Origin: a virus
Lineage: Duplodnaviria; Heunggongvirae; Uroviricota; Caudoviricetes
Length of the DNA: 6,125 bases
Strand: one strand, 5' to 3'
IMG/VR virus record: IMGVR_UViG_2734482594_000015
Shown here: positions 78 to 6,125 of the stretch, one piece after another
Numbering within the stretch: the stretch's first letter is position 1
How the letters are laid out: each line of letters starts with the position of its first letter
Notes under the pieces: generated by a model
Database searches by the model: none
The model's input: only the letters and a program-made list of their open reading frames with translations
What the model was told of the DNA's origin: nothing
Made by a program: the position numbers and the translations under genes

Positions 78-404
78 TCACTGGCGCTGACACTTCATCA
101 CCTCCGGACGTAAATCACCATCCTTTGGTGCATTCAGAAACGCGTTCAGTGTCCCCGGTGCATCAGTCGGTGCCACATCAATATCCCCGACACGGGTTGG
201 CTGCCAGCCGTTACAGTGAAGCGCAACCTCGTAATACCCCGGCTCAGCCTCAATCACATAAGCACCGTTATTGTCCGTCACGCAAGTGGCAACAACGTGT
301 GCCACAACGGTCGGACTGGTTCTTCTGGCCCGCAGTTCAATCGCACAATTTACGACAGGTTTACCCGCCCCATCTTTCAGTACACCTGAAATCTTTACTG
401 CCAT
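78..404 (-). CDS. stf: Side tail fibre (Stf-like) N-terminal domain fragment, truncated after about 108 aa
   Basis: Minus-strand ORF with ATG at 404-402 and TGA at 80-78. The product MAVKISGVLKDGAGKPVVNCAIELRARRTSPTVV...PGTLNAFLNAPKDGDLRPEV resembles the N-terminus of lambda Stf as I recall it (MAVKISGVLKDGTGKPVQNCTIQLKARR...PGTLNDFL...DDARPEV). It sits 63 nt downstream of lom, matching the lambda lom-stf spacing. The ORF track's longer start at 446 adds MTARWFRRAFCGVN, which has no counterpart in Stf and would overlap the hairpin at 421-440. Full-length Stf proteins are several hundred aa, so this is a fragment. Confidence 0.55.
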   Translation of the reverse strand: MAVKISGVLKDGAGKPVVNCAIELRARRTSPTVVAHVVATCVTDNNGAYVIEAEPGYYEVALHCNGWQPTRVGDIDVAPTDAPGTLNAFLNAPKDGDLRPEVMKCQRQ

Positions 405-415
405 ATTCACCCCAC

Positions 416-440
416 AAAAAGCCCGCCTGAACCAGCGGGC
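416..440 (-). terminator. Candidate intrinsic terminator downstream of lom
   Basis: On the minus strand: GCCCGC, loop TGGTTCAG, GCGGGC (6-bp GC-rich stem, plus-strand 421-440) followed directly by TTTTT (plus-strand 416-420). It lies between the lom stop and the stf-like start. Confidence 0.4.
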
Positions 441-467
441 AGTCATAACACTGTGTTACCTGGCTAA

Positions 468-1514
468 TCAGAACTTATAACCGACACCCACGATGAAACC
501 GTCAGTGCGCCAGTCACCACTGCCGGAACCTTCATAAGCAAGGTCAATGGCCACGGATTCGGTCGGGTTAAACTGCACGCCAGCCCCCCACGCCAGAGAC
601 GTGTTGCTGTGGCGACCGTCATCACTTCCGGTCAGCACATCGTGCGTTTTCCCCTTGTTGTCAGTTACGCGGAGATAATCCCCGGAGAAAGTCGACACAC
701 GGCTGTAAGCCACACCCGCCATCGCATACGCGCTGAACCANNNNNNNNNNNNNNNNNNNNNNNNNNNNNNNNNNNNNNNNNNNNNNNNNNNNNNNNNNNN
801 NNNNNNNNNNNNNNNNNNNNNNNNNNNNNNNNNNNNNNNNNNNNNNNNNNNNNNNNNNNNNNNNNNNNNNNNNNNNNNNNNNNNNNNNNNNNNNNNNNNN
901 NNNNNNNNNNNNNNNNNNNNNNNNNNNNNNNNNNNNNNNNNNNNNNNNNNNNNNNNNNNNNNNNNNNNNNNNNNNNNNNNNNNNNNNNNNNNNNNNNNNN
1001 NNNNNNNNNNNNNNNNNNNNNNNNNNNNNNNNNNNNNCGCCAGAGACGTGTTGCTGTGGCGACCGTCATCACTTCCGGTCAGCACATCGTGCGTTTTCCC
1101 CTTATTGTCAGTTACGCGGATATAATCCCCGGAAAAAGTCGACACACGGCTGTAAGCCACGCCCGCCATCGCATACGCGCTGAACCATTCATTCACGCGC
1201 ACAGACGGCCCCGCCATCACGCTGAACCAGCGGTTACGCACGGAATCCTCATGCCAGCGGGTATCGCTGTAACGGGTAAGCTGGCGATTCTTGTCTCCTG
1301 CATAGCTGAATGACGTCACCAGCCCCAGCGTATCCGTAAACTCATAACGGTATTTCACGTTAATGCCCTTCAGGTCATCGCTGCCTGGCATATCAGTATG
1401 GGTCTGAAGATACCCGGCGCTCAGCGTGGACTGATGTTCAGACGCCCATGCAGGCGCACCGGATACGGCCAGACAGATGGCTGCGGACAAAATGGCTGCA
1501 CAAACTTTACGCAT
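468..1514 (-). CDS. lom: Lom outer membrane protein (Ail/Lom/OmpX/PagC family beta-barrel); reading frame interrupted by an N-run and an internal 150-bp duplication
   Basis: ATG at 1514-1512, TGA at 470-468. A GAGAGG Shine-Dalgarno lies 5 nt upstream of the ATG. The N-terminus [28 protein letters not shown] is a typical signal peptide with an AxA cleavage site, and the C-terminus ...[10 protein letters not shown] ends in Phe as outer-membrane barrels usually do. The sequence closely resembles lambda Lom as I recall it. The 348-codon ORF is inflated by 297 N plus a repeated 150-nt segment; removing 447 nt gives about 199 aa, near the ~206 aa I recall for lambda Lom. Confidence 0.85.
591..740. 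repeat. Direct repeat copy A (150 bp) abutting the left edge of the N-run inside lom
   Basis: 591-740 matches 1038-1187 with 4 mismatches in 150 nt (for example ccccttgttg vs ccccttattg, gcggagataa vs gcggatataa). Both copies encode [22 protein letters not shown](L/I)[27 protein letters not shown] in the lom frame. Confidence 0.9.
741..1037. other. Run of 297 N (assembly gap or masked sequence) inside lom
   Basis: Directly visible. Its length is a multiple of 3, and the track shows the lom frame continuing through it as X. Confidence 1.
1038..1187. repeat. Direct repeat copy B (150 bp) abutting the right edge of the N-run inside lom
   Basis: Partner of 591-740, beginning exactly at the first non-N base after the gap. 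Confidence 0.9.
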
Positions 1515-1581: not shown

Positions 1582-4500
1582 TCAGCTAATCGTGATGCCT
1601 GCAGTGGCTTTCTTCATCACCACAACCAGCAAATCGCTGATACTTGCTGTGGGATACCAGCCATTTACCAGCCATGCCGATACAGAAAACTCCAGCGTCA
1701 TGTGACCGTGACCGGCAGGCATATCAATAACACCCGTATATATCAGCGTATTATCCAGGGTCGTTCGGTTATAAATTTCAGCACCGTTTTTCTTCACTAT
1801 CAGGCGGCATGACGAATAAATATTGTTATTCTTCCGCTCATGTTTAGCACCGCGAAACGCCACCGCGGGAATAACAATTTGCCGATCAAACGGCTGATCG
1901 TCATAAACCCTGACGGTAATGGTCCCTGATGGCCACCTCTCCGGTGCCCGGGAGTCCCGTGGGAAAGGTTTGCCCACTGTTTTAACGAGATCGCCTTCAA
2001 TCTGGTTCGCGGACAATTTTCCCAGAACCCGACAGTTCTTATTAATCGTGACGTTGTTGAGCGTCCCGGAGTTCGCGTTCACGTTACCGCTGATATCGGC
2101 ATTTTTCGCCGTCAGCCGTCCGCCAGGTGTCAGGGAAAATGCCGGAGGATTACCGCCGCTGGTAATGGTCGGAGCCGTCAGGCATTTCAGGAACACGTCG
2201 TTCATGAATATCTGATCGCCCTGACCAACAAACATCGGCTTTGTGTTGCCATTCGCAGGATTAATCATCGCAATCCTGTCTGCCGCCAGCAGCACCTGAC
2301 TCTGCATTCCTGCTGGCGTATTCTCAATACCGGCACCGATACCCGCAATATAAAGGCGTCCGTCCTTCATCTGTTGCAGCTTCACAGCCCACATGCTGTT
2401 CAGGTTATTATTTGTATCAACCTGAACTTTCTGTATCTGCTGGATTGCAGCACTCTGATTTTCCAGTTTTTTATTGACGGTTTGCGTGATTTCATTGCTG
2501 ACATTCGTAATGGACGTCCTGATTTCAGTCAGGTCCGGCGCAAGCTGACCGTTATCAATCTGCGTCCACAACTCCTTGCCGAGATGCGTTTTATTGATCA
2601 ACCCTTTATAAAAATTCAGATAACCTTCTGCATCATCGCTCGCCCGACCGATGGCCTCCACAAATGCCGATTTGCCAACGGTGTTCACACTGCGAACGTA
2701 AAAATAATAATCATGGCCCGGCCTGATATTGATACTGGCGGCTATCCAGTACAGCGCCGTGCCAAGATAGCGGGCGCTGGTTTCAACCTGCCTGATATCC
2801 GCAATCCGCTTTTCCGAAAACCAGAACTCAAACTGCACCGTCGGGTCATATACAGCCAGTTTCGGGACCGCCGTTATCTGAAAATACCCCGGTATCAGTT
2901 CAATAGTGACAGGCGCTGCCGGTGCCGCAATCCGGAACGATACCGACGCCGGATCGCCCTGCTGCCCCCGGGCATTTACCGCCCGGACTGTCAGACTGTA
3001 ATTCCCCAGCGCCAGCTGCCTGAAGCGGTATGTGGTTTCCGTCGTCCTGGCTGTGCTGACCAGCCGCTCACTGCCGTCGTCCGCTGCCACGGTCAGGCGA
3101 AGCAGGAAGCTCACACCCTTCACCACCTTCGGCGTGTCCCATCGCGCCAGCACCTGATATTCCCCGCTGTCTGCGGTGACTTCGGCGGTCAGATGCTGCA
3201 CCGCTGGCGGCGTGACACCATTCACCGTGCCGCGCCGGTCACCGTCAAAGTGTGCCCCGTTATCCACGATGGCCTCTTTTTCCGGCACATGCTGCACGGC
3301 GGTGATGGCATACGTGCCGTCGTCGTTCTCACGGATACTCACGCAGCGGAACAGACGCTGGCGCAGCGTCGGCAGCTTCAGCCCCCACACGCTGTATTCT
3401 GCAACGCCGTCAGGAACCCGGCTCACTTTCACCTTCACGCCGTCGGTGACGGACTGGACCTCCACGCTGACCGGATTGCCACTTCCGTCAACCAGGCTTA
3501 TCAGCGTGGTACCGGAGGACGGCAGCGTGATTTCACGGTCGAGCGTCAGCGTCCGGGTCTGGCTGTTCACCGCCAGTACGCGACCACCGGTGCTGATACC
3601 GGCATAATCATCATCGCAGATTTCAATGACATCACCCGGTACATGGCGAAGCCCTTCTGCGCCCACGCTGAAGTCCACGGTCTGCGTTTCCAGCAGTTCC
3701 GTTTTAATCAGCCACAGCCCGGCTCGGTGTGCCTGCCCCCGGCTGGTACAGCCAAAGGCATCCATCTTCGTGACATTACGACCGTAACGGGCAATGGCCT
3801 GCGTATCCTCCACAAGCTCTGTCGCCGTCTCCCAGCCGTTATCTGGGTCAATCCAGTTCACCTCAACGGCATTATGGCGGTCCTTCAGGGCGCTGAAGCT
3901 GTAGCGGAACGGCGCGCCATCGTCCGGCATCACCACATTACTGCGGTTATAGGTCCACACCTTATCCGACGGTCGGTCCTGCACGAACGTCAGCATCTGT
4001 CCGTTCCATACCGGCATACAGCGCATCGCCGAGCAGAAATCACTGAGAACATCCCACGCCTTACGCTGTGTGGTCAGGTAAGAGTTACAGGTGATGCGCG
4101 GCTCCGTGCCGCCAAATCCGTCCGTCACTGACTGGTCGCAGTACTGGCCGATGACATACAGCGCCCATTTGTCCACATCTGCCGCACCAAGACGTTTCCC
4201 CATGCCGTAGCGCGGATGAGTGAGCATGTCCCACAGACACCAGGCCATGTTGTTGCTGTATGCTGGCTTAAGCGTTCCGTCCCAGATACCGCTGTATTGC
4301 CGCGTCTGCGGGTTATAGTTCGACGGCACCTGCAGAATGCGCCCGCGAAGATGATAATTGCGACTCACCTGCTGGTTACCGAACTGCTCTGAATCCACCT
4401 GCACGCCGACCAGCGCCGTGTTCGGGTAGCACTGTTTCACATCGATGATTTCGGTGTACGACGACCAGAGCGTTTTGTTCTGCAGCTGGTCTGTGGTGCT

Positions 4501-5061
4501 GTCCGGTGTCATCCTGCGCATCCGGATATTAAACGGGCGCGGCGGCAGGTTACCCACCACCACCGAGGCCAGATACTGCGAAGTGGTTTTGCCCTTAATG
4601 GTGATGTCTTTTTCCGTCACCCAGCCACCGTTACGCTGTATCTGAACCAGCAGGCGGACTTCCGACGGATTCCGGTCACCCTTTGAGGTGGTTTCCACCA
4701 GTGCCTGCACACCGAAGGTCAGGCGCAGACGGTCGATGTTTGCCGACGTGATGGTCCGGGTGATCGGCGTGTCATATTTCACTTCCGTACCCAGCACCGT
4801 CTCGGAGCCGGAGGATTCAAAACCCTCCGGCGGTGTCTGCTCCTGCTCACCTGCACGGAACACCACCGTAACACCGGAAAAGTTTGTCTTCCCCTCGCTG
4901 TCCAGGACCGGCGTACCGTTCAGCAGCACGCTTTTTAATCCATCCACCGGACCGTCAACCGGCCCTTCGCTGATGGCATCAATCACACTCAGCAACTGCG
5001 TGGATTTCAGGTTGTCCTTCGCTTCGCGCGGGGTATGCCCCTTACTGCTGCCTTTACCCAT
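1582..5061 (-). CDS. J: Tail tip host specificity protein J (central tail fibre), 1159 aa
   Basis: Uninterrupted 3480-nt minus-strand ORF with ATG at 5061-5059 and TGA at 1584-1582. GAGG lies just upstream of the ATG. The N-terminus [34 protein letters not shown]... and most of the first ~810 residues closely match lambda gpJ (1132 aa) as I recall it. The C-terminal ~345 residues are homologous but clearly diverged. Confidence 0.95.
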
Positions 5062-5102: not shown

Positions 5103-5804
5103 TCACATAAAACATTTTGCATCAGCGACCAANNNNNNNNNNNNNNNNNNNNNNNNNNNNNNNNNNNNNNNNNNNNNNNNNNNNNNNNNNNNNNNNNNNN
5201 NNNNNNNNNNNNNNNNNNNNNNNNNNNNNNNNNNNNNNNNNNNNNNNNNNNNNNNNNNNNNNNNNNNNNNNNNNNNNNNNNNNNNNNNNNNNNNNNNNNN
5301 NNNNNNNNNNNNNNNNNNNNNNNNNNNNNNNNNNNNNNNNNNNNNNNNNNNNNNNNNNNNNNNNNNNNNNNNNNNNNNNNNNNNNNNNNNNNNNNNNNNN
5401 NNNNNNNNNNNNNNNNNNNNNNNATTACTCGCCATAATTCCTACCCCCGGCATCCATATAGCAACCGCCATAACAGCCGCCCCCAGCACCGCCTGAAACA
5501 CACCGCCACTTTTAGCTCCCACCAGACGCGGTACTATGTGGATCACTGCACCATTTGCCAGCGGCTCATTAAGACGGGCAGACAATTCGGTTTCACCTGC
5601 ATCACGCCCGGCAATGCGCACCTGATACCAGCCGTCACTCAGTTTCTGACGAAACGCCGGGAGCTGTGTGGCCAGTGCCCGGATGGCTTCAGCCCCCGTT
5701 TTCACACGAAGGTCGATGCGGCGACCAAATCGTTGTAAATCCCCGTAAAGGCAGATGCGCGCCATGCCCGGTGACGCCAGAGGGAGTGTGTGCGTCGCTG
5801 CCAT
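5103..5804 (-). CDS. I: Tail assembly protein I; central part hidden by an N-run
   Basis: ATG at 5804-5802. The N-terminal 127 aa (MAATHTLPLASPGMARICLYGDLQRFGRRIDLRVKTGAEAIRALATQLPAFRQKLSDGWYQVRIAGRD...) resemble lambda gpI. The start overlaps the 3' end of K as in lambda. The stop at 5105-5103 is only valid if the 291-nt N-run (97 codons) preserves the true length and frame; the resulting 233 codons compare with about 223 in lambda. Confidence 0.75.
   Translation of the reverse strand: MAATHTLPLASPGMARICLYGDLQRFGRRIDLRVKTGAEAIRALATQLPAFRQKLSDGWYQVRIAGRDAGETELSARLNEPLANGAVIHIVPRLVGAKSGGVFQAVLGAAVMAVAIWMPGVGIMASNXXXXXXXXXXXXXXXXXXXXXXXXXXXXXXXXXXXXXXXXXXXXXXXXXXXXXXXXXXXXXXXXXXXXXXXXXXXXXXXXXXXXXXXXXXXXXXXXXLVADAKCFM
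5133..5423. other. Run of 291 N (assembly gap or masked sequence) inside I
   Basis: Directly visible. Its length is a multiple of 3. No duplicated flanks were detected. Confidence 1.
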
Positions 5805-6125
5805 TTGTCGGTGTACCTCTCTCGTTTGCTCAGTTGTTCAGGAATATGGTGCAGCAGCCCGCCGTCACCGCAGTAAATGGCGGCATGATTCGGCACCGAT
5901 GAACCAAAACAGCACAGCAGCACATCGCCCGGCTGTGCCTCTGTCAGTGCGACACGGTAAAAACCCGTCACCTCCATATTGTCAAGATAGAGATTCTGAC
6001 CGTTACGCCACCAGTCATCCCCGCGATGAAAATCCGGCATCTCAATCCCTGCCAGATGATAAGCATCCCGGAACAGCGTGTAACAGTCCGTCACCCCGTG
6101 CTCAAAGCGCCGCCCGGTGAGATGC
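5702..6125 (-). CDS. K: Tail tip assembly protein K, C-terminal (NlpC/P60-like) part; 5'-partial, start lies beyond the window
   Basis: The minus-strand frame is open from the window edge to TGA at 5704-5702. The translation ...HLTGRRFEHGVTDCYTLFRDAYHLAGIEMPDFHRGDDWWRNGQNLYLDN...WRHRAWRASAFTGIYNDLVAASTFV matches the C-terminal half of lambda gpK as I recall it. The M at 6094 in the ORF track is an internal GTG (Val) codon, not a start. Confidence 0.85.
   Translation of the reverse strand, partial: HLTGRRFEHGVTDCYTLFRDAYHLAGIEMPDFHRGDDWWRNGQNLYLDNMEVTGFYRVALTEAQPGDVLLCCFGSSVPNHAAIYCGDGGLLHHIPEQLSKRERYTDKWQRRTHSLWRHRAWRASAFTGIYNDLVAASTFV

Follow-up and report, generated by a model that had tools for sequence, protein, structure and literature searches.

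Gene J and its modules

The window (the whole stretch of DNA analysed here, 6,125 nt of the IMG/VR virus record IMGVR_UViG_2734482594_000015) holds a block of distal tail genes, encoded on the minus strand, from a lambda-like prophage. The gene order, K-I-J-lom-stf, is the same in lambda and in intact E. coli prophages (e.g., in strain CFSAN029787). Our subject is gene J, for the tip attachment protein or central tail fibre. J is a mosaic that ends in a receptor-binding domain (RBD) belonging to a type known as 1A2, and the predicted receptor is the porin OmpC, not LamB. The gene and its modules are located as follows (the names of the shaft and fibre domains are from PMC11101478).

1582 to 5061, minus strand: gene J, tip attachment protein / central tail fibre, intact with 1159 codons and stop (open reading frame (ORF) list, lambda gpJ alignment, Pfam)
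2620 to 5061, minus strand: J residues 1-814, hub domains and two FNIII/Ig domains, the lambda-like body
2386 to 2619, minus strand: J residues 815-892, alpha-helical shaft (AHS), a long allele with 28 residues more than that of lambda
2086 to 2385, minus strand: J residues 893-992, central straight fibre (CSF, a beta prism), containing the conserved island; Pfam Phage_Tail_Tip
1585 to 2085, minus strand: J residues 993-1159, specificity module (CSF end and Ig-like RBD), 1A2-type, with OmpC as predicted receptor

We identified six Pfam domains in J, all far above cut-offs: Phage-tail_3, FNIII-A_GpJ, Ig_J, Ig_J_second (716-818), Phage_Tail_Tip (872-1000) and Ig_GpJ_C (1030-1159). The domain order is that of the lambda gpJ family (hub, two Ig/FNIII domains, helical shaft, Phage_Tail_Tip prism and Ig_GpJ_C RBD). 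By domain content and homology, J can be assigned as the trimeric tail-tip or central-fibre protein of a lambda-like prophage. The structure predictions reported below are all of the monomer.

J is colinear with lambda gpJ (NC_001416, 1132 aa) over 1159 aligned positions, with 82% identity (BLASTP), and the identity is uneven. Residues 1-814 are 95.8% identical to lambda. Identity falls to 25.6% over residues 815-892, which include the 28 residues absent from lambda, rises to 74.6% over residues 893-1010 (92% over 961-1000), and is 39.6% over residues 1011-1159. In sliding windows, the DNA is about 90% identical to lambda up to J nt ~2400, 23-37% identical over nt 2461-2640, 88% identical over nt 2821-3000, and about 50-60% identical past nt 3000. 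These transitions in DNA identity are abrupt, and we therefore conclude that they mark a recombination mosaic and not chance fluctuation.

The original prediction, made from the letters of the sequence, had described a lambda-like body to about residue 810, a departure from lambda near residue 815, one conserved island, and a last stretch of ~150 residues only loosely similar to lambda. The alignment bears out this description, and the peptide strings quoted for it are all present in J. The range that was marked, 1582-2620, corresponds to residues 815-1159 with the stop codon (codon 815 begins at nt 2619). The 345 residues encoded there are not uniformly lambda-like. They had been taken together as a receptor-binding region, and this needs narrowing: residues from about 993 to 1159 do form the specificity module, but residues 815-892 belong to the shaft and residues 893 to about 1000 to the straight fibre.

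We compared J with ten other J proteins, by segment and by sliding DNA windows. The body (1-814) is 95-98% identical to those of lambda, 21, 434, ev017, Turner, PhiR55_1 and the CFSAN029787 prophage, and only 73-75% identical to those of the compared Shiga toxin (Stx) phages (1717, WGPS2 and WGPS6). For phage 21, 434 and PhiR55_1 the body identity is 95-96%. The shaft (815-892) is 88-90% identical to that of phage 21, ev017, PhiR55_1, 1717 and WGPS6, whereas lambda, 434 and Turner have a short shaft that is 26-28% identical. Similarly, the CSF (893-1003) is 75% identical to lambda and 93-95% identical to phage 21, PhiR55_1 and WGPS6. Long shaft and CSF taken together match the allele of phage 21, ev017, PhiR55_1, 1717 and WGPS6 at 88-95%. 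Stx2a_WGPS2 has only the RBD module in common with J, and its DNA identity to J rises from 62-80% to 91-95% at J nt ~2940-2990. This jump falls at a conserved 21-residue motif, the same place as the joints of engineered J chimeras. The divergence of phage 21 DNA from J lies slightly further downstream, at nt ~3000-3100.

Residues 815-892 are a longer helical-shaft allele, with four heptads more than lambda. The gap between the Ig_J_second and Phage_Tail_Tip domains (819-871) falls in this most diverged stretch. Three helices, at 806-823, 826-836 and 844-899, are predicted when AlphaFold is run on the single sequence of residues 805-905; block-mean predicted local distance difference test (pLDDT) values reach 93-97 over about 855-894. 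With 28 more residues at 1.5 Å each, the helix would be longer by roughly 4 nm. The long shaft is common to phage 21, which uses LamB, and to Stx2a_WGPS6, which has a 434-type RBD, and thus receptor use does not follow the shaft allele. Among the three C-terminal modules, only the RBD decides the receptor.

By sequence comparison, homologous recombination built J out of at least three alleles: a lambda-like hub and FNIII body, a long shaft and beta-prism fibre like those of phage 21, and an Ig-like RBD of 1A2 type. Mosaicism of J is already published, as is the excess variation of its hypervariable specificity region (lambda 960-1132; PMC6646904).

Residues 881-960 (2182-2421; J nt 2641-2880) are 99-100% identical in DNA to Stx2 phage 1717, compared with 64-94% elsewhere in J. 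This patch indicates a further small recombination tract. At the end of it, within a CSF motif, residue 960 is Cys (2182-2184, minus strand). The residue is Arg in lambda and in the CFSAN029787 prophage and Tyr in phage 21, so that Cys is private among the compared sequences.

The CSF also contains the equivalent of a peptide that is sensed by a phage defense system. Residues 902-933 of lambda J activate HepS, an abortive-infection nuclease of Gifsy-1; F924 is the trigger, and Gifsy phages escape with Ile at this position (PMC13043305). J keeps the Phe, and so is predicted to trigger HepS.

2179 to 2274, minus strand: J residues 930-961, equivalent of the HepS trigger peptide (lambda J 902-933), by alignment; F952 corresponds to lambda F924

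The receptor-binding domain and its predicted receptor

C-termini of J proteins from natural E. coli prophages have been used to replace that of lambda gpJ after aa 964, and two of the resulting chimeras, A8 and 1A2, are retargeted from LamB to OmpC (PMC11338833). Delivery was assayed in K-12 cells lacking lamB and ompC and carrying plasmid-borne ompC alleles. In these assays 1A2 delivers DNA only if the cells are given a suitable ompC; it uses the OmpC of EDL933 but not that of MG1655, whereas A8 uses both (PMC11338833). In the source data, 1A2 gives at least 76% green fluorescent protein (GFP)-positive cells at the highest multiplicity of infection on 20 of 23 OmpC variants, and fails on G1 (MG1655), G2 and G40.

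The specificity module of J is very similar to that of 1A2. Residues 993-1159 are identical to the 1A2 module at 155 of 167 positions (about 93%), with no indels, when four evident optical character recognition (OCR) errors in the 1A2 sequence (Supplementary Table 1 of bioRxiv 10.1101/2025.02.28.640725) are set aside. The chimera junction at lambda aa 964 corresponds to residue 992 of J. The RBD itself (1034-1159) is 100% identical to that of the E. coli CFSAN029787 prophage and 91% identical to those of PhiR55_1 and Stx2a_WGPS2. All other compared types are much more distant: 59% for phage 21, 57% for Turner/A8, 56% for phage 1717, 39% for lambda, and 36-38% for 434 and WGPS6.

J thus does not carry an RBD of the lambda, phage 21 or 434 type. 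It is only 39-40% identical to the LamB-binding RBD of lambda (J 985-1132). Identity to the LamB-binding RBD of phage 21 is 59% over phage 21 J 1034-1160, and DNA identity drops from ~92% to ~60% at nt ~3000-3100. The OmpC-binding RBD of 434 is 38% identical and has different loop lengths.

The structure predicted for the module is consistent with this assignment. An AlphaFold (AF2) model of J 993-1159, made from a 17-sequence alignment, has an all-beta fold with a mean pLDDT of 82. A Foldseek search of the PDB returned as its top match 9wcb, A8 gpJ 713 in the open state with EDL933 OmpC G17 (62% identity, template modelling (TM) score 0.75). This was followed by 9wca, from which we took the A8 sequence, and then by lambda J 8xck and 8xcj (43% identity, TM 0.77-0.80). 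The E values (1e-19 to 9wcb and 9wca, 2e-18 to 8xck) confirm the Ig-like fold of J RBDs. The structure prediction proposed for the C-terminus in the earlier reading therefore matches solved J RBDs, including that of lambda. In a PDB search, too, the closest solved relative was A8 gpJ 713 (9wca), before lambda J.

The porin of a strain with the identical RBD was also considered. In CFSAN029787, the one genome in which we made this check and a different genome from that of the window, ompC is intact. Its product best matches 9wcb_A, the EDL933 OmpC, with 760 bits, no difference in overall length or loop lengths, and about seven substitutions. Two four-residue loop indels set it apart from K-12 OmpC: FTSG is found only in K-12, and VING only in EDL933-like alleles. 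Since this OmpC is EDL933-like, the lysogen with the identical RBD carries an OmpC that is permissive for 1A2.

We conclude that the RBD is of 1A2 type and that this allele, with its 12 substitutions, probably uses OmpC in the manner of 1A2, and not LamB. OmpC is the predicted receptor because the RBD is nearly identical to that of 1A2, which uses OmpC experimentally in cells without LamB. OmpC alleles with EDL933-like loops are probably permissive, and K-12 OmpC probably is not. The original prediction had proposed a different or altered outer-membrane receptor on the basis of the mosaic, and the finding of a 1A2-type rather than a lambda (LamB)-type RBD supports it.

The RBD type is a standard J ending in E. 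coli, and not an oddity. Of 5426 complete E. coli genomes, 3378 contain its DNA (the last 459 nt of J) at >=80% identity; most copies are 90-95% identical, and the median number per genome is two. The earlier description of the mosaic as ordinary phage biology thus holds, as this is among the commonest J endings in E. coli prophages. RefSeq already carries, under the annotation gpJ, sequences with the identical RBD as well as J sequences that are nearly identical. We also identified 57 phage records with this RBD type (VT1-Sakai, many O157 Stx2a phages, PPompW prophages, P-EibA, JLK-2012 and ECOR-induced phages, for example). Each is either a prophage, Stx or other, from an O157, O55 or ECOR strain, or a phage that was propagated on E. 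coli C or ECOR13. The J fragment ynaA of the K-12 Rac prophage was considered as a cause of the abundance of the RBD and rejected, as YnaA is without similarity to the J C-terminus. When the RBD was used as query in a large protein search, the matches were all J fragments of <300 aa, several of them frameshifted, which sufficed for the alignment used in structure prediction and not for a census.

The allele in the window differs most from 1A2 in one loop. Five of the 12 substitutions are consecutive (window residue first): R1076K, K1077E, N1078H, N1079T and N1080D. The others are K1008E, P1032A, R1070S, K1090R, T1101A, T1109S and G1134N. Eight members of the 1A2-type family align gap-free and have 30 variable positions, which are densest at 1076-1081; position 1134 has three states.

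1819 to 1836, minus strand: J residues 1076-1081, RKNNNI, hypervariable RBD hairpin loop; KEHTDI in 1A2; aligns with lambda 1048-1053
1660 to 1662, minus strand: J residue G1134; N in 1A2 and D, N or G in other alleles; adjoins the position of lambda D1107

Allowing for the 28-residue offset, lambda 1048-1052 is the counterpart of window residues 1076-1080, and lambda 1106-1107 that of 1134-1135. Maddamsetti et al. (PMC6646904) showed that J lineages are defined by indels at lambda 1012, 1048-1049, 1077-1078 and 1107, and that the switch to OmpF in the laboratory depends critically on residues 1012 and 1107. Because the loop positions align with these hot spots, the private changes of the allele sit where specificity is tuned.

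The RKNNN allele is found only in a small set of genomes. Among GTDB representative genomes, exact matches to a 60-mer of the loop are limited to S. flexneri SFBU1023 and E. coli ECMA0423, whose identity to the window is only 94-98%. The allele is also present in eight complete E. coli genomes with RBD DNA >=99% identical, including the ipaH-carrying CFSAN029787. A fragment from S. dysenteriae covers 60% of the RBD and matches it there at 100% identity. The closest matches to the window as a whole are enteroinvasive E. coli (EIEC)-like strains and Shigella flexneri (97-98%), and the best complete E. coli genome is FDAARGOS_943 (98.2%). These matches suggest a prophage lineage associated with Shigella and EIEC. 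In CFSAN029787, the prophage with the identical RBD adjoins the ipaH genes.

Several points weigh against OmpC use by this allele in the manner of 1A2. Within this RBD type, dependence on OmpC and not on LamB has been shown for 1A2 only, and the allele of the window is known by its sequence. The comparison sequence of 1A2 is an OCR copy with obvious errors. The run of five substitutions at 1076-1080 and the change at 1134 fall at lambda specificity hot spots, and thus the allele range, and in the extreme the receptor, could differ from that of 1A2. A small change in sequence can alter the receptor in this clade. The RBD of phage 21, which uses LamB, groups with the ev017 type, and that type is ~82% identical to the OmpC-binding A8; phage 21 gains OmpC use by one mutation, I1025T, at the junction of straight fibre and RBD (CSF/RBD), on the trimer axis. 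Finally, host evidence is not significant. No record among the 57 has K-12 as propagation host, which fits the 1A2 phenotype, but by our own estimate the probability that all seven ECOR-derived PhiR phages avoid K-12 is P ~0.15. Residue 1025 (1987-1989, minus strand) is Leu in the window and in 1A2, and Ile in A8 and phage 21.

Neighbouring genes and alternative readings

We identified the following features around J.

5702 to 6125, minus strand: 3' part of gene K (NlpC/P60 peptidase), continuing beyond the window end
5103 to 5804, minus strand: gene I (tail assembly), Pfam Lambda_tail_I, with a 291-nt run of N at 5133-5423
468 to 1514, minus strand: lom (Ail/Lom outer-membrane protein), downstream of J, with a 297-nt run of N between 150-nt direct repeats
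78 to 446, minus strand: 5' part of stf (side-tail-fibre gene), phage_tail_N PF08400, ending after ~120 codons
1 to 93, strand not assigned: end of an insertion sequence of the IS66 family, a 100% match to annotated IS66-family transposase copies

An interruption of gene K was considered, and rejected; the gene simply extends past the window edge. The masked run in gene I is 291 nt long and its equivalent in S. flexneri SFBU1023 is ~250 nt, and a length difference of ~40 nt may therefore lie inside the masked piece.

The lom ORF has 348 codons, compared with ~199 expected. It contains a direct repeat (591-740 and 1038-1187; 150 nt, 97% identical, spacing 447 nt, in frame) around the 297-nt run of N at 741-1037. 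The two halves match positions 1-159 and 110-199 of the Ail_Lom profile. Either this is a genuine partial duplication or insertion, or it is an artefact of assembly or masking.

The homology to intact prophages ends at nt 93 and the stf ORF ends after ~120 codons. Thus, stf has been truncated by the IS66-family element. The end of the element (nt 1-93) has 100% matches to IS66 transposase copies that are annotated in CFSAN029787 and in an O121 strain.

The substitutions in the loop raise the question of whether the allele is a natural specificity variant, retargeted to another set of OmpC alleles or to a porin other than that of 1A2. We consider this doubtful. In a version confined to OmpC, the changes at 1076-1080 and 1134 would shift the allele range relative to 1A2 (e.g., to the OmpC of Shigella and EIEC or of K-12). 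The clustering of the differences in the hypervariable hairpin and at residue 1134, aligned with lambda hot spots 1048-1049 and 1107, favours such a shift, and the restriction of the RKNNN allele to SFBU1023, ECMA0423 and eight complete E. coli genomes points the same way. However, the OmpC of CFSAN029787 is EDL933-like and of a kind already recognised by 1A2, the range of 1A2 is already broad (20/23 alleles), and the association with Shigella and EIEC could be mere shared ancestry. A shifted range is therefore unlikely. Use of LamB, as in phage 21, or of another trimeric porin (OmpF, PhoE or OmpN) in place of OmpC is very unlikely. The RBD of phage 21, a native LamB user that is one mutation from OmpC use, belongs to the same super-clade (59% identical to the window), and the J proteins of both lambda and phage 21 evolve OmpF use in the laboratory. 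Against this, identity of the module to an OmpC binder active in lamB-deleted cells is 93%, compared with 59% for phage 21 and 39% for lambda.

J could also belong to a decaying, non-inducible prophage that no longer adsorbs, in which case the mosaic would be only a historical trace. The truncation of stf by the IS66-family element at about nt 93, the odd in-frame duplication around a masked stretch in lom, and the visible extent of the prophage (6 kb) would fit with decay. J itself is nevertheless an intact ORF of 1159 codons with six domains far above Pfam thresholds, and laboratory lambda without Stf remains infectious. Loss of adsorption is thus highly improbable, and it would in any case concern present-day activity and not the identity of the protein.

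Proposed mechanism and comparison with known systems

For a 1A2-type RBD that uses OmpC, a mechanism can be drawn by homology with the closed and open structures of lambda and with A8 9wca and 9wcb. Receptor binding produces conformational changes in lambda gpJ (closed and open structures, PMC11101478), and A8 has been solved both in a closed state (9wca) and in an OmpC-bound open state (9wcb). In J, the bottom loops of the three distal RBDs would insert among the extracellular loops of a trimeric porin; that porin would be an OmpC whose loops are EDL933-like, and would not be LamB. On binding, the RBD bases would spread apart, and the beta prism would become compact and twisted through new hydrogen bonds. 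The helical shaft would then flip and partly refold into beta strands. Finally, the FNIII strings would dissociate and the hub and tail tip open for ejection of DNA.

The mosaic J with a 1A2-type RBD is a real feature, ordinary and already known. The RBD type is already exploited as an OmpC-targeting module in engineered lambda particles, and the allele described here is one more natural variant at loops that engineers can use for tuning the range of OmpC alleles. If the RKNNN/G1134 allele were indeed a specificity variant, it would illustrate receptor tracking in nature at the level of loops. For annotation, the value lies in recording the prophage as a predicted OmpC-using lambdoid phage and not as a LamB user.

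The closest known system is 1A2 (Eligo Bioscience; Brodel et al. 2024, PMC11338833), which has the same module length, no indels and about 93% identity. It differs by the 12 substitutions and has the short shaft of lambda in place of the phage 21-type long shaft found in the window. The modules of natural 1A2-type donors (VT1-Sakai, Stx2a_WGPS2, PPompW and PhiR55_1) are 91% identical to that of the window. Members of this type have the same Ig-like fold and the same 20-residue C-terminus as the window.

A8, Turner and the Stx1a-phage J proteins (9wca, 9wcb) have the same fold (TM 0.75-0.77), belong to the same RBD super-clade and include an OmpC binder. In nature, A8 has counterparts of 100% identity in Stx1a phages, 2H10 and Turner. 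Unlike the window, A8 has a loop that is 5-6 residues longer at the lambda 1048 hot spot and shorter after FPR, and it is only 57-62% identical. A8 recognises K-12 OmpC, whereas 1A2 does not.

The J proteins of phage 434 and Stx2a_WGPS6 belong to the same family and have the same domain order, and 434 binds OmpC. Their RBDs are 36-38% identical to that of J, with other loop lengths, and the 434 type is an independent OmpC-binding lineage. Phage 21 J is ~92% identical in DNA over J nt 1 to about 3060, a stretch that takes in the long shaft and CSF, but its RBD (1034-1159) is 59% identical, with a longer loop at the 1048 hot spot, and its native receptor is LamB. Lambda gpJ (8iyk, 8xck, 8xcj) has the same six-domain architecture and gene order, is 96% identical over residues 1-814, and has a conserved CSF that includes F924. 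It differs in its shaft, which is 28 residues shorter, in its RBD, which is 39-40% identical, and in its receptor, LamB.

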